Source of the DNA: a virus
Virus record (IMG/VR): IMGVR_UViG_3300019762_000005
Location: 28,676 to 92,675 of that record
Length of the DNA: 64,000 bases
Strand: one strand, 5' to 3'
Part shown: positions 14,200-64,000 of the stretch, one piece after another
How positions within the stretch are numbered: the first letter of the stretch is position 1
Layout: every line of letters starts with the position of its first letter
The notes under the pieces: model-generated
Told to the model about the DNA's origin: nothing
Database searches by the model: none
What the model saw: the letters and a program-made list of their open reading frames with translations, nothing else
Translations under genes and position numbers: made by a program

Positions 14200-14273
14200 G
14201 TGTCGTTAGTAGAGTGGCCTAGCACGTCTTGTGTAAAAACGAGGAAACATTGGTTCGAATCCAATACGGCATT
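14200..14273 (+). ncRNA. tRNA-like RNA with non-canonical anticodon loop
   Basis: Acceptor GTGTCGT/ACGGCAT and T arm ATTGGTTCGAATCCAAT. The anticodon loop TGTAAAAA is 8 nt and has no clear U33. Confidence 0.65.
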
Positions 14274-14288
14274 CAATTATTATTAAAA

Positions 14289-16800: not shown

Positions 16801-17148
16801 ATGTTAAAAATTAAATGGAAAAAATCAAAAGGAGGAAGAGCTTTTGAGCACATATTAGAAGGGTGGGTTGGAAATCTACACTCTTTCAATATAGAAGGTC
16901 GTTTATGTGTAACTGACCTAAGAGGGATTAGAAAAACCCCTTGGCAAGCACCAAAACACTACATCATAGATGAGGTAGATAACAAAAGAGAGTTTGCTAA
17001 AAACATGGCTTATGAAATTTTAAACAACATAAATCCAGAAGTTTACAAAGCTAACTTAGAAAAGCAAAGAATTGATAACGAGAGAACTCAAAAAGTCATG
17101 AAAGAGGCACAAGACTTTTTAGATAAGATTCAAAAAAAACAACAATAA
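16801..17148 (+). CDS. Hypothetical protein
   Basis: 115-aa ORF. Confidence 0.65.
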   Translation: MLKIKWKKSKGGRAFEHILEGWVGNLHSFNIEGRLCVTDLRGIRKTPWQAPKHYIIDEVDNKREFAKNMAYEILNNINPEVYKANLEKQRIDNERTQKVMKEAQDFLDKIQKKQQ

Positions 17149-20870: not shown

Positions 20871-21272
20871 ATGAAAAGAAATAAAAAAGTAGTAATAGTT
20901 TGTGGTCCAGGAATATTATCTCACATTAGAGAAGTAAATGCAGCTGCTAAAGTGAAAGCTCTATCGTCTAGCGATTTAAGAACGATAGATAGTAAACCAA
21001 GATTTGTAACTTCTTTAGCAGGTGCAAAACAACTAGAGGCGTGCCTTGAGAAAGAATTCAATAATACCCTTAGAATGCCTGCTGAACTACTAATAAAAGC
21101 TAATCCAGGAGCAATAGGTCCTAATGTAAAATTGCTAGAACATTATGATAAAGCTAATTACTTTAGAGGAAAAGTTAGCAAGGTTAACTGTAAGAAAGAA
21201 GAAGCATCATTTGCTAAAGCAAGAAAGAAACGTAAAAAAACAAAAAAATGTCGAAAAAGGAAGAAAAAATAG
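20871..21272 (+). CDS. Hypothetical protein with basic tail
   Basis: Probable start MKRNKK, downstream of the terminator. Confidence 0.6.
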   Translation: MKRNKKVVIVCGPGILSHIREVNAAAKVKALSSSDLRTIDSKPRFVTSLAGAKQLEACLEKEFNNTLRMPAELLIKANPGAIGPNVKLLEHYDKANYFRGKVSKVNCKKEEASFAKARKKRKKTKKCRKRKKK

Positions 21273-51422: not shown

Positions 51423-54400
51423 TTACTTACAGTCTTTTTTTTCTAATTTGTTTTTAAAGTCGTCAAAACTTAACGGTCTTTCATTATCTGAGAACACATC
51501 TTGAGGAGCACTCTCTCCAATACTATCTGGATCTACAAATGTACCAAAAGGATTTGACTTTTTAACCTTTGATAGAACTTTAGGGTTAACACCAGTAGTA
51601 TTTACCTGACCAAGACCTGCTCCTATAGGTTTTCTGGTTAGGGCGGTATTGTCGTTTACCAGACTTATAACCTCTTTTAAAACTATAGGGTTTAAGTCTA
51701 CTCCCTTTTTTACTCCTAAAGCTACTAGTATCGACTTAAACACTTCTGTTAATTTATCAAAGAATGTTTTCTTGTCGTTCCATATTTCAGTCTTCATGAA
51801 AGATTGAAACTTACTATCAGTCATTGATATAGCTACAAACTCCTCTATGTTTAAAGCTGCTCTTTGCCATGTATCGTTATACATTAAATCGTTAAGCTCT
51901 GACTCTGAATATCTACTTTCCATTTTCTTGACAAACAAAGAGTGTAGAGCTTTAATATTATTGTAAGCTTTTCCTTTCTTCTCTTTTATCACAGCTACAG
52001 TTACAGCATGTAAAGCTTCATGTAGTAGAGTTTTGCTTAAATCTCCAGTAGTAGGGTTTATAGCAATCTCTATCTTTCCTGTATTAGTAGACCTTCTTGT
52101 AGCTCCTTGAGCCTCCAAATCTGACTCTATAGAGAAAGATATATCTTCAGGAAGAGATTTTGTTACCACATCAACCAAGTCTTTATATTCGGGGTTAACA
52201 TCTACTTGCTCCAGTAATCTCGTTATCTTCTCTTTTCCAGAAATATCTAATCCGTCTATCTCGTAGAATTTGTCAGAGTTGTCAACGACACTGTCTTTTT
52301 TCGGCACAGCTATTTCATTAACTCCATTTATAGTGTTTTCGTTATTCTTTTCAATAACACTGAGAAGATTAACTTCCGACATATCATATTCGCTAATATC
52401 GGTTGTACCGAGGGTAGGTATTTTTTCCCATGTAGATCCATTGAACTTGAATAGTAAATCTCCAGCCTGTTGTTCAACTCTAATATATGTAGGTGTCAAG
52501 TCTAACTCAGAGTTGTATGTTAACTCGTAAGCCTTGTTAATTGGAACACCTCCGAAATCTAAAGACTTAGAGTCTACAGTTTCAATCTCGAAAGAGTTGT
52601 TCTGAAAATACTGAGTCATAAATCCATTAGTTATTCTATATCCAGCTGTGTCTCTAAAATCTATATCTCTCAACATTTCTGAGAATCCTAACTGATTGAA
52701 TACTTCTACAGGTATATATTTAACGAATTCTTTAGCTTGCTGAATGCCTCCGTTCATCATAGAGTACACCATTAAGTCACCTATAAGTTCATTAGAAGTT
52801 CTGTCGATTGAAGGATAATTTTTGTTTCCAGCAAACATATCAATGACAGACATATAGATAGACTCTTCATCGAAATCTTCTCCTTTAGCAGCATCAAACG
52901 TTACTAATGATGGCTGTCCATTGAAGTTTATCTCTGTATTAAGACGACCTATGAACGGATGTTTATCCATTCCTGGTTGTTTCTTTAACTTGTCAATAAC
53001 AGATGCTAAAGATTGTTTAGTTATAACACCTTTATCATCTTTTCTATCCATTAATAATTCGTCTCTTTTTTGAGGAAGATAAGCATCAAACGTATGTTCA
53101 AAAGAATCTGTGTACAAGTATGACTTAAGGCCATTAAATATCTTTTTGAATATCTTCTCAGTAATAGCTTTCTTTCCTGTTATCTCTTTGTATTCAGATA
53201 TAGCTTCTCTAACTACTGGAGAATCATAAGGAAACAATTTAGAGAATATTTCATTACCAAGTGCAGCTCCTCTAACAGAAGCGAATCCGTTAATAGTTGT
53301 AGGTCTAATCCAATAGGGGCCAACACGTTGATAACCTGATTCTTGAGGATTATCATCTTCCATGTCTTTTGGTAAAACATAGTCACCTATAAGGTTGTCT
53401 GCTCCTCCTATTGATTTGTGTCCGTATAAATCTATAACTCCATCAACCTTCTTGTTAAGAGCAAACATAGATTTACCAACCCCACTACTATCAGAGTTTA
53501 TTGCTAACTGAATCTCAGTGATAGTATCACCTAGCTCATCAAGCTTTATAAACTTCGCCAATATAGCTTTCTGAGTAGATTTGTAGTCAGCTATAGCTTC
53601 ACCTTTCTCGACATACTCTAATAGATTGCTTGTAGACCTATCAGCTAATGCTGGATCAACTTCTCCATCTATTTCATCAAGCATATTTCTCATTATGTCT
53701 TCTTTCGTTAATCTTTCAGAAGCAAGAGCAGAGTCATTAACTGTAAGTCTGTTTGCTAATTCGAATATAACATCTTGAGATATTACAGCTGATATTGTAC
53801 TTTCATCAAACCCTAATAGAGCTAATGCTTTAATAGTTCCAAAAGTATATCCATTAATATTCAACTTGTCAAGAATTTGCTCTTTCTCATTATCCACGGC
53901 TGCAGATTGATAAGCAGCAATGACATCTGATATGTATTTCTTTCCATCAAGAGTTTTTGCATTGGATATGACTCCAGTAGATTTCTGAAGTCCAAACCTC
54001 ATCTCAAATGGATTCTTTTTAGTCCCTCTAACAAACAGCCCTTTGTTTTGTGCAGTCGCATGGAATACAGAATCTAAAGACAAAGCTCCAACCCCTGCCT
54101 TACCTGCAGATGCGTTTACATATTTCTGTCTTTGGTAGGTGGCAGACGTGGGATTGAATAACTTACTACCTTCTAGTCTAGCACTCCTTTGATTAGCGAT
54201 TGTGTTAGCAAGTCCTTCAGCTCCATCTAAATCTCCAAAATCAATAGGCTTAGCCATTAATGATTGCATTTCAGTATCAGGATTAGACATTACCGCATTA
54301 TGAATATCTAGGATGCTGTTTTGAGTTTGCTTTTCTTTGAACTCGCTTTTAAGTTTTCTCCAGTTTTCTGGAATAGCGTCTTCACCAAACATAGCTTCAA

Positions 54401-57400
54401 GCAATTTCGTTGAAGCAGGATCATCATCTACATGGTTGTCGTATATCATTCTAATGTTCTCATCAGTAAGTTTTCTCACATCTAAGAACGTACCGTCAGT
54501 ATCTTGGAATATATTGTACTGGTAAGTATAAAGCTTATCAACATCAAAATCTGATCCCATCTGAATAGTTAAATCCCTAGAAGCGATCAATAAATCTCCC
54601 ATCTCTTTCGGTAGAAATCCAACAATCTCCATCATCATCATAGAGTTATGACCCTGGGTAGGAATACGAAATCCAAACAACTGCAATAGTTCTTTAGGAA
54701 TCTTCGTTTCGTCAAGCATAAGCTTTCCATCTACTTCAGTAGCGTAATCCTGTACATTGATAACCTTTCCATTTCTATCCTTCATTATAGTCGGAACAAG
54801 CACTTGAGAAGGTCTAAATGTAGAAGATGTAAACTTGTGAGGTAATAGCTCGTTATTAAAAGAACTAGTCCATACGATCTTGTTCTTGTACTCAGAAAGA
54901 GCACCTGCAGATTCTTCGAATGATTTCACATTTCTAAAACCTTCTTCCGAACCTAATACATAAGATTTACCATGATGTTTCTTCTTTATAATCTTGTTAT
55001 TAACTATCGAAGTTAGTAGAGATTCTACTTTCTCTGTACTAGTTAGGGCCCACAAAGGGACTTTAAAGTCACCGTCAACGATTTCTAATGCCAACTGGTC
55101 ATTAAGAGGATAGTCTCTCTCAATAGCCTCTTGAATAAGCATTTCCCCAAGCTTCTGTCGGTTAAGATCCTTTCCGTTCCATTCTAAATCTTCTATCAAC
55201 TGATTGTAAGAGTCTTCGTATATCTCTTCGTACAAAGAATTGTAGACAGCTTCAAGCTTTTCTCCAGTATATTTTTTACCGTTATAACTGAATCCACCTA
55301 TACCTTTGATATTAGAGAACAAAAGCTTTCTTTCTTGAGTACCAACATTAATCTTGTCTTTATCCTCTTTATAAGGTACATCTTGCTGAATTCTCCATCC
55401 ATCATAAGAAAGGTCTATAGCGTTATCGAAAGATATGTCATTCTTAAGAGTTCCATCTTTTTCGTAAGCTTCTACAGAGTTAGAAGGAGCACCTACTTTT
55501 GTAGCTGTATAGAAAACAACTTTGTCAACACCTTGCTCTTCCATCTTTTTTCTCATCTTGTCAATCTCTAATCCTCCTGTTAATTGAGGAAGTAATGGAA
55601 ATGCAGAAGACTTGATATAGATACGTCTATCCAAGTCGTTATGTTTTTCAAACTTGTTGGAAACATGAACCGGTTTTAACGGCTGAAATACCACGTCTAG
55701 CTCTCTACTATCTAAAGACTCGTTCTTTTCAAGCTTCTTAGTAAGTTGTTGAAGCTTCTTTTCAGAAATCTTTCCAATTCCTTTCAACACTTTCAAATGT
55801 TCTTTCCATGATACAAACTCTTGAGCATCTGCACCTTCAATATCGAAGTACGGACTAGACTTTGGATACTTAGCTTTGATTTGTCCTTTGATGCCTTTAG
55901 ATCCATTCTTGTACGATTCTATCTCTGCATCAGTTATTTCTTCACCATCAAGAGTCTTTGTATAGAACTTGATATTGTTGGATACTGATTCTGGATCTTT
56001 TATGAATGCAACTTTATAAGTTCCTTTCAAGTCTGATTCATAACCAGGAGCTAAATCACCAGCAAGACGTTTACCCATATTGATAAATGTATCCATAGAT
56101 TGCTGTACTGAATCATCAGACTTACTCTTGTAAAACAATGCAGGATCTCCAGTATAGTTTTTGAATACGCTTGCATTATGAAGCATATAGTTAATAGCGT
56201 AATCAGCAGCTATATTCTTAAGACCATGCTTTTTGAACTTCTTCTTATATTGAGAATCAACAAACGTTAAAACACCTTTGTCATTTACAATACCTAGATT
56301 TCTCCAGTCTTCTATTTGTTCAGATATTACGTTGTTGAGGAAATCTTTAAGATACGCAATTATAGGCTCTGGATTATTAGGAGTTATAACTAGCTTTCCG
56401 TCAAGCATTATACTCGGGTCATTGTTAAGCTCTGGGAATATCAAGAACTTATTAGCTCCATCTTTGTATCCCTTTACGTCCACACTCTTACCATTCTCCT
56501 TTATGTTTTCAAAAGATCTGATTCTGTTCAATTCTGGAAGTGCCATTTGCTCATATACAGTTCTAACAGAACTATCTGAGATACTTCCGTTTTCATCGAC
56601 ACCTATATCTTGAGCAAGTGTTTCTAGTAGTAGCATTGTTGACTTATCGGACATAGTAGGGTAGAACATCTTAACTCTTCTGTTCCCTTCTTTGTCAGAA
56701 GCTCCCCTGTTTGCGAACAACCCTAGCTTCACAACTTCATGTTCCATAGGAGAGTTCTCGGTAAGTTTACCAGAACCTTTCGCTTTACTCTTTAGTTTCT
56801 TAAGTGTTTCAAGAGATAAATATGACACCTCATAGAACTTGTACATCTTACTGTTTTTATCTATAACAATCTCTCCATTGTCGGCTATCATAGGTTCTCC
56901 AGCATCATCCAGTAAGGCCATTCTCATAAGGTCGTTATGAGTACCATTGAATGATAAAGAGTTTAGTTGTGTTAGCTTTGTGTTGGTAAACACTTTCTCT
57001 CCATTGAACGTAGACTCATTCAGTCTTTTTAAATCTTGTATCCTATTGTTTGCATACTTGTTATTACTGAATGACCAGATAGTTTTCTCTCCTGCCTTGT
57101 GAGATGCGCTATACTTGTTGGTTATGAACTTGCTATTGACCTTCGCTAAATGTTTAATCTCTGTTTCCTTGAATGGAAGAGACAAAGTATCCAGAGGTTT
57201 CTTCTTTTTTGACAAAGCTGACAATGTGTTAACCATCATAGCTAATGGAGAAGCTTTAGGAAGCGTCATTAGCTGCTTGTATGTAAGTACTATTCCTGCC
57301 TTATTCTTGTATTTACCAGTAAGCATCTTGTCTATAACATCTTCACTAAGGTCAAGACCTATAGAGCTTAATAAATCGGTGAAAACTTCCTGACTAGGAG

Positions 57401-60400
57401 GTGCTGTTTTGTAACTTTTGAATCTAGCTTCTACACTTTGAAATGCTTCTTTATCAACAATATGATCTCCTTCGTCATTAGACTTTATGTACGGCATTGA
57501 AAACAAGTTACCTTTCCATTCTTTCAATAGAATATCTTCCACCTTCCCTGAGTTAGAATCTGCTGGAGACAATGTGTACTTTCCTCCATCTACTTTCCAG
57601 AATACCATATTCATCTTAACGTGATGTTTAGTCATCGCTACAGTAAACTCAGTTTTAACCTGGTCGTCAGCAGTCTTAAGCTTGTCTACAAAGTTTTTCA
57701 TCCAAGGCTTAGCAGCGTGTATTTCTGTATCAGAAAGAACATCTACATAGTCATTGAAGTCTGGTTTCCTCCCTGCCAACAAACTCATAACCTCGTTAGA
57801 CACTTCATCAAACTCCATAAAGTTTTCTATACCAATAAGATTATGAGTATTAGAAGCTGGAATACCTGCCATAAACATCTTGAGTCTTTCACTCATTGTG
57901 TCCTTTGTATTCAGCAAGAATGTAGTAGAACCGTCTTCAAAACTTTTCTTCTCTAATATTCCAGCACTTTCTCCAAAGTCTAAATCTTGACCTGTTTCTC
58001 CTTCTATAATCTTGATATTTGAATACTTAGAAAGCCTACGCTTAGTAAGTGTAGCTACATTTTCAAAGTTGTTTACAAATAGTGATATTAAAGCTTTCTT
58101 TTTTCCTGTAGCTTCATCTCTTAACCTCTCAAGATTATCTTTTTCTTGCCTAAAGAAAGTTACAGTATCCTCTTTAGAAAGCTTATTATCGTTCTCTAAA
58201 ATCTTAATGAACATTTTAGCAGATATACCTCTAATAGTAGAGTGTTGTAATCCAAAAGGAATCTTAGGATGAATGAATAGGTGCTCAACAGAACTTCTTA
58301 ATGCTACTTTGTTGTCTTGAGTAAAAGGAAGTTCAAAGACATCAAAGTCAGAAAAGTCTATATCTTCATCATCTTCGAAAGTTTCTTGACCGAAATCAAA
58401 CTCCAAAGCATCATAGTTAATGTTTCCTTTAGAGTCAACAGCTTTTACATCTGATTTAGGAGCAGCTTCTTTTTTAGCAGCTACTTCTTTGTTGGCAAAT
58501 GAATCGTCAAATTCTATTGAAGGTTGTATTGTGTAGATGTATTCAGGGTTCTCTTCAGTACCAATATTAAAAGACAATAATCCTGTAGATGTATTCTCTT
58601 TGATTAAGTCGTTGTACGAGTTAGCTAGTACGTCTACTTCTCCATTTACCAATCCTTCTACAGCCTTAGAACTGTTAATACTTGTTTGGTTTACATTGAA
58701 GAAAGACTCTTCCAAATGAGTCTTTAATCTGTTCATTATAGCAGGTCTAGCCTCTTCTGGAGTATTAGCAGAAAGAGAGAAAGTTTTCATTCCTCCACCT
58801 GCACCAAAGTCGATACTATTTCCAGTAACTGTCATTAGCCTGTAAATAGAATTCACATCTTCATGCTTTAGGTAATCCTCTAAACTGTCATACGTGTCAG
58901 GGACGTTAAACAAGTAAGCAAATTGCTTTAAGTATTTTCTAAGACCTTCAACATTTCTAACGTCAGTTTCGCTATTGTTTACTAAGTGCTCTGATAAGTC
59001 ATTATGTTCTTGAGAAGAGAAAGCTTCAACTGCTGATATAATACTATGTACCATATCGCCACTCATCTTTTCGTTAGATATAGGAGTAGCGATTGACTCT
59101 CCGTTAGAAGTAGGCAACAATGTGTACGCTACACCTTCTAACAAACTATCAACATCATTAATCAAGCTACCTTTGAAAGGGGTTTTCAATCCTTTCATTT
59201 CTCCATTCACAGTTATGAATATCTTAAGATTTGGGTCTGGAAAAGCATCAGATACTTTCTGGTATCCATCTTTGTTAGAGATTAGAGACCCTGGCTTTTT
59301 ATCACTAACAGTAGTGCTAATAGATCCTTTGTCAATAATCTCTTTCCTTATACTTCTAATATTTTTTAAGTTCTCTTCTATAGATCCTTTGATATTTTCT
59401 TCCTTCATCCAATCTGCAGAATGTAGATATGCAATATTTCTTCCTTCAGAATCTTTAATAACTATAGGAATGTAGTCTGCGATCTCAGATTCAGACAGGT
59501 TGCTTTTCAAAGCACCCCAAGTAGTCTTCTCTTTTTCAGTACTGTTAGGTACGTAAACTTCTGTTTCAGCGTTATCATCAACAGCTATAGTTATAGGAGT
59601 CCCAATGTCAAAAGAATCGCTAAGTAGCAACTTACTGTTTCCTTCTAATAGCGAATTGTCTAAATCTTCCCTGCTAACTTTACCTTCGTCATTAACCATT
59701 TGAGAAAATGCTCTCGATAAGTACGCTAATTTGTTGTATCCGTCTGTGGTTCTACTATAGTCGAATTCATCGTTAGTATCGCTTGAAGCTTCTGCATTAG
59801 CTTTTTTAACGTCTGCAACTGCTTTTTCAGAAGCTTCATCAACATCCTTTGCTTTGTCCTCGTTGAACACGTCGTTTAGAGTTGATTCTGTTTCGGAAGT
59901 TTTTTGAGCAGCAAACTCTCTAGCATCTAAAGCTTTCTGAATAGCCTGAGACTTCAGTGCTATCTTATCAGCCATATCTGGAGTTAACATATCTAAGTCA
60001 TCAGCATACTTTCTAATCTTGTCAAGTTCACCCTGGGTAGCAGAACCATCCACAAACTTCTCCAAGTCAGCAGTAGTTGTTGTTGATTGTTGTGGAGCTT
60101 CTTTAGCTACAGAACTCTGGTCCTCTTGATGTTGGTAGAACTTTTTAGCAAGGTCTTTCAATTCTTTATCGCTTAACGATTGATTGCCTTCAATAGTTTC
60201 TTTAGCATCTTTAAGATCGGTCTTTTCCTTCGCTTTCTCTTCTTTTCTTTCAGCTTTGTCAGCTTCTTTAGCCTTTTCTCTTTTAGCGTCTTCAATATTC
60301 TTTTCAGCTTCTTCTTGAGCTTCAGCAGCTTCTATACTTTTTTGTGCCTGATATTCTGGAGTAATTATCTCGTTGAAAATATCGTCTAATTTCTTAACAT

Positions 60401-62279
60401 CGTTATCTATGTTAATTAAATTGCTTTCTAAGTTCTTTATCTCGCTATACTCTTCAAGTTTTTTAACTTCCTTAAGAAATTCATTATACTTGCTAGTTTG
60501 CTCAGTAGTTTTTCCAGGGTTCAAGTCTAATGTAGAAGAGTCGTATGAAAGCCTATCTTGTCCAGCTACAGACTCCAATGAACTAATACCATGTCTTTTA
60601 CCAACTCTTTCTAATTGTTCGTTAAAAGCTAGAGTTTTACTATCAATAGCACTCTTGATATTGTCGTACTGAATTAAAGAGTTCTCTCTATAACCCCTGT
60701 TAAGGAATACTTGCCTCTGGTTTACGTAATCCTTTGAACGATTATAAACATTTTCTAATCTTTCTATAGTTGCTATAGCTTTGTCAGCTCGCTCTTTATA
60801 GTCGTCACTCATGTCTTTTTGCTGAGGACCGTTTTTTAACCCTTTGTAAAGTTCTATAAGTTTCCCTGTGGTACCATTTTCGAACGCTCTATGAGCTTGA
60901 GAAACAAGAGATGCTTCATTCAGTTTTTCAACCTTATCGTAATCTTTAGCTTTTTGAGCTTCTAGTATTTGGTTATTAAGAACTATCTGGTCAGCAAGGT
61001 CATTGAATACATCTGTAGCCGTTTTGACATCTCCACTCTTAGCTATATTATCATATTGAGAAAGTATTGCTTGTTGTCTTTCATAAGCATTGTTAGCGGC
61101 TGTTCTCTCAGAAACTCTACCGTCTTCAGTATCGGTTTTCTTTATAGCTCCTTTTAAGTTTGTTCCACCAGTTTGAGAAGCTCCACCAATAGCACCCCAA
61201 AATGCTGCGGCCCAAGCTTGGTCCTGACCTAAGTACTCGATAACTTCAGCCATTCCAACCTCTTTACCCTTACCTATAGCAGTACCAGCCTCAGCACCTA
61301 TATGATTGACTAACTCTTCTATTGCTTCCTGTCCAGATTCAAGTCCAAGTTCTCCAATAGTTCTACCTATGGTTTGTTTGCTTAGAATGTTACGGGTAAG
61401 TTGATTGCCTTTTAACAGCTTTCCTGCAGACGTGATATTCAATAAGAAGTTTACTTTGTTGATCTTAGAGGTCATTGCTGCTGCATCTCCAGCCAACTTC
61501 TTAGCATCTTCGTAGCTTTTTCCAAGACTAATATTGTCCTCTAACGTTTGGTGGTAAACACTGTTAGTCTCCATTAACGTTTCAATATGATTTAACGCAT
61601 AAGCATTTGCTGAAGCTCCAGCAAAGTCTTGTATTCTTTTGAAAGAGTTTCCTCTCTCTATACCTGCTAAAGCATTACCATAAAGTTTACTCTTGTTAAG
61701 ATTCCTAACAGCTTTTAACCCAGAGCCAATAGCTTTACCTACTCCACCTAAGACCATACCTTCAACGATAAATTCTGCAGCAGACTTAACTGTGTCAGAA
61801 CCTCCTTCAATCCACCAAGCAGGGTCTCCCATATCGAATGCTTCATTAGGATTTTCTTTATAGATAGGTGTAGCTTCACGTAATGATTCTTGAGCTTCGT
61901 TTGTGAAATCAGTAAGCCAGTTAGACGTGTCGCTAGAATCAAAGTATGAAGGTATATCAAAAGCAGATGCTAATCCACCTATAACACCAGGAACTACATT
62001 CCCTAATCTCGCAACACCGTTGCCTAATTGCTCCCAGTTAGATTGTGATTGAGCTCTTTGCTTTTCTAAATTATCGCCATAAGGGTCTATGTTTTCACCA
62101 AGGTAATTAGTGAATTCATCAATATTTCTATCTGTTGTTGAGAATCCTTTAGAACTTTGATTAGCCTCCCAACTTTGTTGACCAAGGCTTTCTAAATCAT
62201 CATATAGAGGGTCGGGGGCTGACCCTCCACTTGATAAATTTTCATCATACTCGTCTGCGTTAAATCTTTTCTTTGCCAT
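51423..62279 (-). CDS. Virion-associated two-barrel RNA polymerase polyprotein (3618 aa)
   Basis: FRIPTQGHNSM and catalytic GSDFDVDKLY (~54530-54560); C-terminal zincin-like LLHEALH...EEFVA. Confidence 0.92.
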   Translation of the reverse strand: MAKKRFNADEYDENLSSGGSAPDPLYDDLESLGQQSWEANQSSKGFSTTDRNIDEFTNYLGENIDPYGDNLEKQRAQSQSNWEQLGNGVARLGNVVPGVIGGLASAFDIPSYFDSSDTSNWLTDFTNEAQESLREATPIYKENPNEAFDMGDPAWWIEGGSDTVKSAAEFIVEGMVLGGVGKAIGSGLKAVRNLNKSKLYGNALAGIERGNSFKRIQDFAGASANAYALNHIETLMETNSVYHQTLEDNISLGKSYEDAKKLAGDAAAMTSKINKVNFLLNITSAGKLLKGNQLTRNILSKQTIGRTIGELGLESGQEAIEELVNHIGAEAGTAIGKGKEVGMAEVIEYLGQDQAWAAAFWGAIGGASQTGGTNLKGAIKKTDTEDGRVSERTAANNAYERQQAILSQYDNIAKSGDVKTATDVFNDLADQIVLNNQILEAQKAKDYDKVEKLNEASLVSQAHRAFENGTTGKLIELYKGLKNGPQQKDMSDDYKERADKAIATIERLENVYNRSKDYVNQRQVFLNRGYRENSLIQYDNIKSAIDSKTLAFNEQLERVGKRHGISSLESVAGQDRLSYDSSTLDLNPGKTTEQTSKYNEFLKEVKKLEEYSEIKNLESNLINIDNDVKKLDDIFNEIITPEYQAQKSIEAAEAQEEAEKNIEDAKREKAKEADKAERKEEKAKEKTDLKDAKETIEGNQSLSDKELKDLAKKFYQHQEDQSSVAKEAPQQSTTTTADLEKFVDGSATQGELDKIRKYADDLDMLTPDMADKIALKSQAIQKALDAREFAAQKTSETESTLNDVFNEDKAKDVDEASEKAVADVKKANAEASSDTNDEFDYSRTTDGYNKLAYLSRAFSQMVNDEGKVSREDLDNSLLEGNSKLLLSDSFDIGTPITIAVDDNAETEVYVPNSTEKEKTTWGALKSNLSESEIADYIPIVIKDSEGRNIAYLHSADWMKEENIKGSIEENLKNIRSIRKEIIDKGSISTTVSDKKPGSLISNKDGYQKVSDAFPDPNLKIFITVNGEMKGLKTPFKGSLINDVDSLLEGVAYTLLPTSNGESIATPISNEKMSGDMVHSIISAVEAFSSQEHNDLSEHLVNNSETDVRNVEGLRKYLKQFAYLFNVPDTYDSLEDYLKHEDVNSIYRLMTVTGNSIDFGAGGGMKTFSLSANTPEEARPAIMNRLKTHLEESFFNVNQTSINSSKAVEGLVNGEVDVLANSYNDLIKENTSTGLLSFNIGTEENPEYIYTIQPSIEFDDSFANKEVAAKKEAAPKSDVKAVDSKGNINYDALEFDFGQETFEDDEDIDFSDFDVFELPFTQDNKVALRSSVEHLFIHPKIPFGLQHSTIRGISAKMFIKILENDNKLSKEDTVTFFRQEKDNLERLRDEATGKKKALISLFVNNFENVATLTKRRLSKYSNIKIIEGETGQDLDFGESAGILEKKSFEDGSTTFLLNTKDTMSERLKMFMAGIPASNTHNLIGIENFMEFDEVSNEVMSLLAGRKPDFNDYVDVLSDTEIHAAKPWMKNFVDKLKTADDQVKTEFTVAMTKHHVKMNMVFWKVDGGKYTLSPADSNSGKVEDILLKEWKGNLFSMPYIKSNDEGDHIVDKEAFQSVEARFKSYKTAPPSQEVFTDLLSSIGLDLSEDVIDKMLTGKYKNKAGIVLTYKQLMTLPKASPLAMMVNTLSALSKKKKPLDTLSLPFKETEIKHLAKVNSKFITNKYSASHKAGEKTIWSFSNNKYANNRIQDLKRLNESTFNGEKVFTNTKLTQLNSLSFNGTHNDLMRMALLDDAGEPMIADNGEIVIDKNSKMYKFYEVSYLSLETLKKLKSKAKGSGKLTENSPMEHEVVKLGLFANRGASDKEGNRRVKMFYPTMSDKSTMLLLETLAQDIGVDENGSISDSSVRTVYEQMALPELNRIRSFENIKENGKSVDVKGYKDGANKFLIFPELNNDPSIMLDGKLVITPNNPEPIIAYLKDFLNNVISEQIEDWRNLGIVNDKGVLTFVDSQYKKKFKKHGLKNIAADYAINYMLHNASVFKNYTGDPALFYKSKSDDSVQQSMDTFINMGKRLAGDLAPGYESDLKGTYKVAFIKDPESVSNNIKFYTKTLDGEEITDAEIESYKNGSKGIKGQIKAKYPKSSPYFDIEGADAQEFVSWKEHLKVLKGIGKISEKKLQQLTKKLEKNESLDSRELDVVFQPLKPVHVSNKFEKHNDLDRRIYIKSSAFPLLPQLTGGLEIDKMRKKMEEQGVDKVVFYTATKVGAPSNSVEAYEKDGTLKNDISFDNAIDLSYDGWRIQQDVPYKEDKDKINVGTQERKLLFSNIKGIGGFSYNGKKYTGEKLEAVYNSLYEEIYEDSYNQLIEDLEWNGKDLNRQKLGEMLIQEAIERDYPLNDQLALEIVDGDFKVPLWALTSTEKVESLLTSIVNNKIIKKKHHGKSYVLGSEEGFRNVKSFEESAGALSEYKNKIVWTSSFNNELLPHKFTSSTFRPSQVLVPTIMKDRNGKVINVQDYATEVDGKLMLDETKIPKELLQLFGFRIPTQGHNSMMMMEIVGFLPKEMGDLLIASRDLTIQMGSDFDVDKLYTYQYNIFQDTDGTFLDVRKLTDENIRMIYDNHVDDDPASTKLLEAMFGEDAIPENWRKLKSEFKEKQTQNSILDIHNAVMSNPDTEMQSLMAKPIDFGDLDGAEGLANTIANQRSARLEGSKLFNPTSATYQRQKYVNASAGKAGVGALSLDSVFHATAQNKGLFVRGTKKNPFEMRFGLQKSTGVISNAKTLDGKKYISDVIAAYQSAAVDNEKEQILDKLNINGYTFGTIKALALLGFDESTISAVISQDVIFELANRLTVNDSALASERLTKEDIMRNMLDEIDGEVDPALADRSTSNLLEYVEKGEAIADYKSTQKAILAKFIKLDELGDTITEIQLAINSDSSGVGKSMFALNKKVDGVIDLYGHKSIGGADNLIGDYVLPKDMEDDNPQESGYQRVGPYWIRPTTINGFASVRGAALGNEIFSKLFPYDSPVVREAISEYKEITGKKAITEKIFKKIFNGLKSYLYTDSFEHTFDAYLPQKRDELLMDRKDDKGVITKQSLASVIDKLKKQPGMDKHPFIGRLNTEINFNGQPSLVTFDAAKGEDFDEESIYMSVIDMFAGNKNYPSIDRTSNELIGDLMVYSMMNGGIQQAKEFVKYIPVEVFNQLGFSEMLRDIDFRDTAGYRITNGFMTQYFQNNSFEIETVDSKSLDFGGVPINKAYELTYNSELDLTPTYIRVEQQAGDLLFKFNGSTWEKIPTLGTTDISEYDMSEVNLLSVIEKNNENTINGVNEIAVPKKDSVVDNSDKFYEIDGLDISGKEKITRLLEQVDVNPEYKDLVDVVTKSLPEDISFSIESDLEAQGATRRSTNTGKIEIAINPTTGDLSKTLLHEALHAVTVAVIKEKKGKAYNNIKALHSLFVKKMESRYSESELNDLMYNDTWQRAALNIEEFVAISMTDSKFQSFMKTEIWNDKKTFFDKLTEVFKSILVALGVKKGVDLNPIVLKEVISLVNDNTALTRKPIGAGLGQVNTTGVNPKVLSKVKKSNPFGTFVDPDSIGESAPQDVFSDNERPLSFDDFKNKLEKKDCK

Positions 62280-62314: not shown

Positions 62315-62614
62315 TTAACCAAACTCTACATGGTAGTGCAATGGATTTCCATGCTTAATAACCTTCTTCACTCCAGGGAACTTAGATGGGTCTGCTTTGA
62401 AGTCCTTGTAGAACCTAGCTCCATCTGCATTATCTCTAAGATCAATAGCGTCTCCAGTAAGATGCTTTGACTGTTTAACGCTGGACTCAAGAGAATCGTT
62501 CAATTCTTCAGTACGCATACCGCTGGTAAGAACTGACCCTGGATATGAAGACTTTATATTTTGAATAGCAGATACGTTAGCTTTTCTCGTTGTAGGCTGA
62601 CTAACACTACCCAT
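62315..62614 (-). CDS. Peptidase M15 domain (probably a -1 frameshift extension of the upstream gene)
   Basis: TSGMRT..N, SKHLTGDAIDL and HYHVEF motifs. Confidence 0.85.
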   Translation of the reverse strand: MGSVSQPTTRKANVSAIQNIKSSYPGSVLTSGMRTEELNDSLESSVKQSKHLTGDAIDLRDNADGARFYKDFKADPSKFPGVKKVIKHGNPLHYHVEFG

Positions 62615-62644
62615 ATCATCTCCAAAAATACTACTGATGTTCTC

Positions 62645-62674
62645 TAGCCCCTCAGCAGGGCTATCTACTTTCCC
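62645..62674 (-). promoter_or_regulatory. -1 programmed frameshift signal
   Basis: G GGA AAG immediately before TAG, then hairpin TAGCCC..GGGCTA. The -1 frame is open into the M15 ORF. Confidence 0.75.
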
Positions 62675-64000
62675 GGCTGTCCTTTTACTGGTCCTAGTTT
62701 TTCAGGAGTTACAGTAAGGAACTGCATAGCAGTATTCTTGTTAGGGAAACTAAACCCAGGGGTTTTAGTCAATCCGCTAAGCTTTGTAGTCATCTCTAAA
62801 AATCTTTCGAAGTCTCCTTCTTTAGGATTTCTAGCAATAGCTTCAAGCTCTTTTACAGCTTCAGGAATAGTCTGATCTTCAGTCAACGGACCATCCAACA
62901 TATTGTTTTGTAGGTGGTGATATATCATATTGAACAAAGGTGCTATTTTTTGACTATCACTTTTGTTGCTGTTTGAGAACGCTTTCTTATAGTAGTCAGC
63001 CATTCCTTGTAGATTCACTAGACTAGTTTCTTTTCCTTCTTCAAGTCCAGCTTTAACCTTTATACCTACAGTTCTATTATCAAGATGTTCTTGGTAAACA
63101 TTCACTTCTTTAGGATTAGCACCATCTCCAAACACACCAGGTCTTATTACTGAACCTGTAGCTTTAATGTCGTTTATAACATTGTTATCCTTGGTAAAAT
63201 CTGTCTTGATGTTTTTCCATTTGAAGTCTCTTCTTTGATCTTCAACTCTTCCTACAGAACCAGCAAGGCCAATTCTTTTTGATTGAGGAGTCTTGGCACT
63301 TTCAGTATAGAACTGCTCAAACTCTCCTTGAAGCTTGGAAGGAACATCAACGATATAACTAGTAGAGTTACCATCTTTATCTTCGACTCTCATCTCCATT
63401 TGAGGAGCTCTACTGTCGTAATCAATAATCTTATTGATAGATACATTTTTAGCAGTAGAGAATTGCTCTAACAAGTCTTCATCGACATCCATATACTCAG
63501 AATCTCCACCACTAACTTTGTAGACTCTGCTTCCTAGATTTTCTCTAACTTTTGTACCACTGTAATGAGATCCAATTATTGTCTTAGAGATATTATCCCA
63601 AACACCTTTTCCTCTAGCTTCTGGAGTAATAGCGAATCCTTGAGTTATTAAGTCTCTTTGTAGTTGCTGATCTAAACTCTTGTTATACATCTTCTCATAA
63701 ACCTGAGATGCTTCCATCTTCGTAGCGATGTCTTCTCCTAATCCACCTACTTCTCTATCTGCTATAGTTGAAAATTCATAAAGAACTTCAGACTGAACTT
63801 CTCTTAAAGCTTGAATCTCTTCAGGAGATAAACTCTTACTAGCATTGTTTATGAAGTTTCTGTAATTGTTCGCAGCTAGAGCATCAGTATCTTTAGTAGC
63901 TATACCGAATACAGATTTCTGAAGTTTAGCTCCGTGAATATTTGTAGTCTCATAATCAAGATTACCTACTATATTGTCTATAGTTGCTCCATCTAATCCT
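62665..64000 (-). CDS. Large virion/ejection protein (5' part outside the window)
   Basis: The frame appears open upstream of ATG 63717; ends ...GQPGK*. Confidence 0.7.
   Translation of the reverse strand, partial: GLDGATIDNIVGNLDYETTNIHGAKLQKSVFGIATKDTDALAANNYRNFINNASKSLSPEEIQALREVQSEVLYEFSTIADREVGGLGEDIATKMEASQVYEKMYNKSLDQQLQRDLITQGFAITPEARGKGVWDNISKTIIGSHYSGTKVRENLGSRVYKVSGGDSEYMDVDEDLLEQFSTAKNVSINKIIDYDSRAPQMEMRVEDKDGNSTSYIVDVPSKLQGEFEQFYTESAKTPQSKRIGLAGSVGRVEDQRRDFKWKNIKTDFTKDNNVINDIKATGSVIRPGVFGDGANPKEVNVYQEHLDNRTVGIKVKAGLEEGKETSLVNLQGMADYYKKAFSNSNKSDSQKIAPLFNMIYHHLQNNMLDGPLTEDQTIPEAVKELEAIARNPKEGDFERFLEMTTKLSGLTKTPGFSFPNKNTAMQFLTVTPEKLGPVKGQPGK

Follow-up and report, generated by a model that had tools for sequence, protein, structure and literature searches.

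Slippery heptamer, stop codon, and hairpin at the junction of two reading frames

We examined a 64,000-nucleotide (nt) stretch of viral DNA, hereafter called the window, which comprises bases 28676-92675 of the 92,675-bp IMG/VR virus record IMGVR_UViG_3300019762_000005. Near one end of the window, two open reading frames (ORFs) follow each other on the minus strand. The upstream ORF is represented in the window by its C-terminal 444 codons and stop (62665..64000, minus strand). The record is circular, and the ORF carries on past the end of the record at G000:C1:124-1487; it is thus not truncated by the window and has a full length of 899 amino acids (aa). The downstream ORF (62315..62614, minus strand) encodes 99 aa and has the motifs of an M15 (LAS-fold) zinc peptidase (SGMR, SKH-x6-D, and H-Y-H; PF08291). 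The original prediction for this junction was that a −1 ribosomal frameshift at the end of the upstream ORF fuses the peptidase to a virion protein.

The 3′ end of the upstream ORF reads ...CAG CCG GGA AAG TAG. The slippery heptamer G_GGA_AAG (GGGAAAG; 62668..62674, minus strand) takes in the last two sense codons of the ORF in the X_XXY_YYZ phase, and the 0-frame stop TAG (62665..62667, minus strand) directly abuts it. This heptamer is described as highly shift-prone in Escherichia coli and is also the site of the lambda G/GT frameshift (PMC5009743). TAG terminates only 10 of the 80 large ORFs, and CCG, the source of the heptamer's first G, accounts for 7.9% of the proline codons in the genome. 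Opening 9 codons upstream of the heptamer, the −1 frame contains none of ATG, GTG, and TTG ahead of the ATG at 62614; it runs for 117 codons beyond the heptamer, with no stop, to the end of the ORF at 62315-62614, reading K-V-D-S-P-A-E-G-L-E-N-I-S-S-I-F-G-D-D-M-G... across the junction. We rejected the possibility that the TAG is read as an amino acid; the 0 frame reaches a second TAG 6 codons further on, and the peptidase lies in a different frame.

Four nucleotides 3′ of the heptamer lies a GC-rich hairpin (UAGCCCU-GCUGA-GGGGCUA; 62645..62663, minus strand), a candidate stimulator with a 7-bp stem, a 5-nt loop, and a stability of −11 kcal/mol. We compared it with 3,000 synonymous recodings in which the peptide of the −1 frame was held fixed and the codons were redrawn from the genome's own codon usage. 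The recodings had a mean of −5.1 kcal/mol (standard deviation, 2.3), and the native stability was reached by 1.4% of them. The arms of the hairpin are made of the rare codons AGC (11%), GGG (9%), and CUA (15%). The rare-codon stem and the recoding result together suggest selection for the RNA structure itself. A scan of the junction against Rfam gave no family match. On the plus strand, this palindrome was also flagged as terminator-like, with a weak T-run; the call lies inside a block of minus-strand genes and was set aside as probably meaningless. The in-phase heptamer, the hairpin, and the stop-free −1 frame into the peptidase domain are all therefore present as originally described, at the same coordinates.

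The linker frame in related phages

A HMMER pass over 1.84 billion representative proteins returned only two relatives of the upstream protein, P0005 (891 aa, 57% identity) and P0006 (903 aa). P0005 is a full-length homologue of the 899-aa ORF, with 61% identity in the N-terminal half. Both are encoded on the same Logan contig as a homologue of the peptidase: P0005 with P0003 on a contig of 96,624 bp (phage B) and P0006 with P0002 on a contig of 27,008 bp (phage C). The window and phage C share 48% identity in the upstream protein and 73% in the peptidase. In all three phages, the upstream protein closes with P-G-K and then a stop (GQPGK in the window, YTPGK in P0005, and GQSPGK in P0006), and P0006 keeps the terminal tripeptide despite one extra residue just before it. 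At the protein level, this is how a conserved CCG GGA AAR heptamer would be expected to appear.

From the slip site to the peptidase ORF, the −1 frame spans 18 codons (the V through the second D of the consecutive D-D in the reading above, V-D-S-P-A-E-G-L-E-N-I-S-S-I-F-G-D-D; 62615..62668, minus strand), which form a linker that contains no ATG, GTG, or TTG. The sole canonical start of the peptidase frame is the ATG at 62612..62614 (minus strand; ATG 62614), which lies 19 codons after the slip site and has a GGAG 5 nt upstream. Aligned with the N terminus of P0002, the linker is identical at 11 of its 18 positions (61%), with no gap and with mostly conservative changes at the rest, and it is nearly as conserved as the window/P0002 alignment as a whole (71% identity). 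Untranslated spacer DNA would not keep its reading frame at such divergence, and the fact that the frame has been kept between distant phages thus argues that the linker is translated and is not unconstrained spacer. In this phage, the upstream ORF is the only route that we could see by which the linker would come to be translated. In an AlphaFold2 (AF2) model, residues 9-19, in the linker region, are ordered, with a predicted local distance difference test (pLDDT) score of ∼80.

The called starts of the three peptidases do not coincide. Counted from the slip site, they fall at codon 2 in phage C, codon 20 in the window, and codon 39 in phage B. At codon 2, the window has GTA; at codon 20, phage C has Ile; and at codon 39, both the window and phage C have Ile. 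The called Met of phage B may in reality be a Val or Leu codon, and the 80-aa version that begins there would be without the core helix at residues 30-42, which AF2 models confidently. Given the Ile of P0002 at the position of ATG 62614, the Met of the window looks like a start gained in its own lineage. A start codon that wanders while the sequence upstream of it is conserved is the behavior expected of a frame that is entered by recoding, independently of a start of its own.

An assembly indel or a recent inactivating mutation at the junction is unlikely because the junction is identical in other samples and because distant homologues share the position of the stop. Logan contigs from two other samples span the junction with no differences (X5, 62381-62847; X7, 62592-62742). 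Contigs from four further microbial-mat runs are 100% identical to the window where they cover it, part of it being uncovered, and show no strain variation.

The peptidase, the lysis cassette, and the gene neighborhood

Based on profile, motifs, alignment, and model, we assign the 99-aa ORF as a small M15/LAS zinc peptidase. Its match to Pfam PF08291 (Peptidase_M15_3) is marginal (23.6 to 23.7 bits, against a cutoff of 23.2), and it also matches the endolysin family phrog_894 (E value, 6e-4). The motifs S-G-M-R, S-K-H-L-T-G-D-A-I-D, and H-Y-H (the Arg, H-x6-D, and H-x-H elements) are invariant in four peptidase homologues, and the second of these aligns to the L-alanyl-D-glutamate peptidase of phage T5. 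The AF2 model has a pLDDT of 77, and its top structural matches are ShhN, VldE, VanXY, MepA, VanY, VanX, and LdcB (Z, 4.5 to 6.7). Although these Z values are modest, the list is coherent (the Hedgehog/DD-peptidase fold), and Foldseek agrees weakly. The protein thus shares the SKH-x-TGDAID zinc motif and the LAS fold with the T5 enzyme and other M15 endolysins (PDB 2mxz, 8p3a, and 2vo9). It differs from the T5 enzyme in its length (99 to 118 aa, versus 137 aa) and in that it is encoded in the cargo block instead of beside the holin; the endolysin of this phage is another M15-like protein.

That endolysin belongs to a lysis cassette that lies outside the window, at G000:C1:11926-14200 (L005 776-3050, minus strand), and encodes a holin (PF05105; E value, 3e-10), a patatin-like phospholipase (PF01734; E value, 1e-15), a 158-aa M15-like endolysin (phrog_894; E value, 2.7e-13) with H-x6-D and W-V-H-L-D motifs of its own, and a 198-aa lipoprotein with a lipobox. 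The presence of a separate lysis cassette makes the peptidase at the junction, to judge from its sequence, a second and divergent enzyme beside a dedicated endolysin. It has no signal peptide and lies away from the holin, and we see no evident route by which it would enter the virion unless it is fused to another protein. A phospholipase between a holin and an endolysin is an unusual arrangement; it might disrupt the membrane at lysis.

The record has a 123-bp terminal repeat, and the genome is therefore circular and complete. The minus-strand genes around the junction run in the order muzzle protein (1,417 aa), cargo protein 1 (543 aa), the 899-aa ORF, the small peptidase ORF, a giant protein of 3,618 aa, and a protein of 1,262 aa. 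The muzzle protein, upstream of the junction, matches the Crassvirus muzzle protein family (PF25731; E value, 4e-145), and the gene directly upstream of the 899-aa ORF matches the cargo protein 1 domain (PF25725; E value, 2e-21); both are on the minus strand. In PhicrAss001, the order is gp44 (muzzle), gp45 (cargo protein 1), gp46 (cargo protein 2), and then giant proteins associated with RNA polymerase (RNAP) (PMC10172136). The window agrees with this order down to a second protein of cargo size followed by a giant gene, and this order, together with the muzzle and cargo protein 1 matches, identifies the phage as crAss-like.

The 899-aa ORF occupies the position of Crassvirales cargo protein 2, downstream of the muzzle and cargo protein 1 and before the giant RNAP-associated gene. 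It has no family match in Pfam, PHROG, or NCBIfam, and a tblastn search with it against GenBank phages gave no match. Its likeness to gp46 is one of position only, and the label of cargo or virion protein comes solely from synteny (muzzle, cargo protein 1, ORF, giant RNAP-like protein). We therefore call the product cargo-type and its place in the virion presumed.

The next gene downstream of the peptidase (51423..62279, minus strand) is the single 3,618-aa ORF of the giant protein. Its motifs are DFDVD and, C-terminally, the zincin motif HEALH, and a Pfam scan returned no match. These motifs and its position lead us to regard it as the crAss-type virion RNA polymerase/zincin protein, fused with other modules.

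The phage is uncultured, and its DNA was found in eight microbial-mat metagenome runs. The genome has a GC content of 35%, and Shine-Dalgarno-like motifs are scarce in it (9 of the 80 large ORFs); from these two features, the host would fit the Bacteroidota. Elsewhere in the window, ARAGORN called a tRNA-like gene at 14200-14274 (plus strand) with an undetermined anticodon ("tRNA-???," two-letter anticodon "aa"). Its acceptor stem pairs poorly by eye, and the call may be spurious or mark a degenerate tRNA.

Other searches for relatives returned little. IMG/VR scans with the upstream protein, the peptidase, the alignments of both, and cargo protein 1 found no relative, and a scan of GTDB genomes found none. 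In JGI metagenomes, the upstream-protein alignment gave no match, and the peptidase alignment gave a single one (L006), an unrelated endolysin of a high-GC phage with the same zinc motif. A DNA pattern combining the heptamer with the M15 motif, run against IMG/VR, returned three ordinary endolysins with GGGAAAA within the leader sequence, which were rejected. GenBank phages gave no DNA or protein match to the junction, the peptidase, or P0005, and the muzzle protein matched only distant crAss-like phages there (25 to 28% identity). The cargo block of Cellulophaga phage phi14:2 has no annotated peptidase, and a further search for homologous proteins returned only the query itself.

A proposed frameshift fusion and its alternatives

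The reading toward which we lean, at slightly better than even odds, is that a programmed −1 ribosomal frameshift yields a 1,016-aa fusion of the cargo-type protein and the peptidase. Most ribosomes on the 899-aa gene would terminate at the TAG, but a minority would move back one base, to GGG AAA, while GGA occupied the P site and AAG the A site. The adjacent stop and the hairpin 4 nt downstream would probably promote the slip by delaying the ribosome. After the slip, translation would proceed through the 18-residue linker into the peptidase. Packaged alongside the unextended cargo protein, the fusion would be ejected upon infection, and the peptidase would cut peptidoglycan cross-links locally, such that the ejected channel and the DNA could pass through the wall. 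The separate holin/endolysin cassette would serve for host lysis, and initiation at ATG 62614 may additionally yield a free 99-aa peptidase. We infer the slip and its efficiency, the packaging, the ejection, and the role in entry from what is observed at the locus, namely, the anatomy of the site, the open frame, the family and fold of the peptidase, its conservation at the protein level, and the separate lysis cassette.

Several observations weigh against this reading. The heptamer by itself is within chance (GGGAAAG occurs 3 times in the window, versus 6.1 expected), and in this AT-rich genome, the 80 large ORFs contain 22 in-phase slippery heptamers within 24 codons of their ends. A −1 frame of more than 50 codons opened at only 3 of those 22 sites, one of which is the junction. 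The other two are AAAAAAA heptamers at window positions 21242-21248 and 17133-17139 (both plus strand), with −1 frames of 94 and 73 codons, respectively. We rejected them as frameshifts; they are ordinary overlapping gene starts at which the −1 frame opens 2 codons earlier and an ATG stands 0 to 4 codons after the heptamer. They serve as a chance background from which the comparative and codon-level evidence sets the junction apart. The hairpin is small, its spacer is 4 nt versus the usual 5 to 9 nt, and its stability is not significant against dinucleotide shuffles (z, −1.5; 16 of 200 shuffles fold equally well). Conservation of the heptamer is seen as the amino acids P-G-K only and not as nucleotides, and we give it modest weight because approximately half of the last 30 columns in the alignment of the upstream proteins are invariant, such that three conserved residues are weak evidence. 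In addition, the propensity of AAG to slip depends on the set of tRNA-Lys in the host.

The start codons also count against a frameshift. The peptidase frame has a possible initiation site of its own, as a free protein of 99 aa could begin at ATG 62614 with its GGAG, and this is the protein called in the database for this phage (P0001). A downstream ATG is compatible with frameshifting, yet it takes away the strongest argument for it. In phage C, the gene caller placed the start of P0002 at the very beginning of the linker. If the spacing is kept, this start would be an RTG that overlaps a TGA stop, and the second residue, Ile (A-T-H), fits. Phage C could thus make the full 117-aa peptidase by ordinary coupled initiation, without a frameshift, and the Met of the window could be a replacement start that was gained after an upstream start was lost. 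Finally, a search for longer forms, which was a weak one, found no in-frame fused homologue.

The main alternative is that the locus holds two ordinary genes, an explanation that we judge to be a serious contender, if some way short of even. The peptidase would then be made only as a free 99-aa protein, by its own initiation at ATG 62614 or by reinitiation after the TAG 51 nt upstream, and a gap of 50 nt is not unusual between adjacent genes; the heptamer would be a by-product of a conserved C-terminal P-G-K, and the hairpin would have another role (e.g., in mRNA stability or initiation control) or none. The ATG, the gene call, the start of P0002 at the junction, the commonness of in-phase heptamers near ORF ends, and the failure of the weak search to find a fused form all agree with this. 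However, the 18 conserved codons without a start are left unexplained unless an upstream start was lost very recently, and phage B, the closer relative, also has no called start there (P0003). The GGAG is an unlikely signal in a genome in which so few ORFs are preceded by such a motif, and a hairpin built from rare codons is not what this explanation would lead one to expect. A free cytoplasmic peptidase with no signal peptide, encoded far from the holin and beside a dedicated endolysin, would also have no obvious job.

An ancestral in-frame fusion of cargo protein and peptidase that was split by a one-base indel, whether a real mutation or an assembly error, would account for two frames that differ by exactly one base and for a linker with no start codon. 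We consider such a broken gene or artifact to be highly improbable. Other samples yield contigs that match the window exactly over the junction. P-G-K is also where the upstream protein ends in both distant homologues, and the split is thus old and maintained; further, the same weak search found no in-frame fused form. Only slightly less improbable is that the linker is translated by other means, either by noncanonical initiation at an ATC or ATT inside it or by transcriptional slippage. A linker that is conserved yet lacks a canonical start would be expected in that case too, but the conserved P-A-E-G-L-E-N stretch precedes both the ATC and the ATT, and runs of three G's and three A's are too short for polymerase slippage. 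The original proposal of a frameshift thus gains from the shared P-G-K stop, the linker, the rare-codon hairpin, and the separate endolysin, and it is weakened by ATG 62614, by the junction start of P0002, and by the derivation of the virion label from synteny.

Frameshifting of the kind that we favor here has counterparts in well-studied phages. In lambda G/GT, a minor C-terminally extended product is made beside a major short one, and the downstream frame need not have a start of its own. The lambda site is the identical heptamer, G_GGA_AAG, and its −1 shift takes place close to the 3′ terminus of a gene for virion assembly (PMC5009743). The lambda product, however, is an assembly chaperone that is absent from the virion, whereas here a podovirus-like crAss phage would add an enzyme domain to a protein that is presumed to be ejected; further, the slip site here abuts the stop and the downstream frame has an ATG. 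In T7 gene 10A/10B and in capsid and tail genes of Listeria phages, 3′-terminal recoding likewise leaves a minority of subunits with an extra module at the C terminus. What the capsid or tail subunit gains there is a short structural or decoration module, and none of these extensions is known to be a peptidoglycan hydrolase on internal cargo. Ejected proteins that cut the wall are well known in short-tailed phages, and the T7 ejected protein gp16 carries an in-frame lytic transglycosylase. As in the fusion proposed here, a wall-cutting domain is taken into the envelope of the host on an ejected protein of a short-tailed phage. In gp16, however, the domain is in frame and present in every copy, whereas here it would be added by recoding to a fraction of the copies and would be an M15 peptidase instead of a glycosidase. 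Reviews are available for 3′-terminal frameshifts in structural genes (PMC5009743) and for ejection proteins (PMC8954989). If real, the frameshift fusion would join two known kinds of system, frameshifting in structural genes and ejected proteins with wall hydrolases. In the literature, we found no description of frameshifting in Crassvirales cargo genes or of a virion peptidoglycan hydrolase appended by a frameshift.

If the two-gene explanation is instead the true one, the locus would hold merely a small second M15 gene, which would be an ordinary finding. A frameshift would have wider consequences, which bear on how crAss-like phages cross the host cell wall. The structural atlas of PhicrAss001 lists cargo proteins and no wall-degrading enzyme; the main text never uses the words "peptidase," "peptidoglycan," "lysozyme," or "hydrolase" (PMC10172136). 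A peptidase appended by a frameshift would identify such an enzyme and would explain how a 12-kDa domain is packaged. The more general proposal is that non-gut Crassvirales load a wall-cutting enzyme into the capsid in a Gag-Pol-like manner, in which an ejected cargo gene ends in a conserved −1 frameshift that places the enzyme on a set fraction of the copies, so dosing it for genome delivery with no separate packaging signal; we regard this as slightly less likely than not. With a peptidase appended by a frameshift, −1 frameshifting in phages would also gain a new use, that of dosing an enzymatic cargo, and since the fusion would be missed by gene callers, the annotations of such phages would need correcting.

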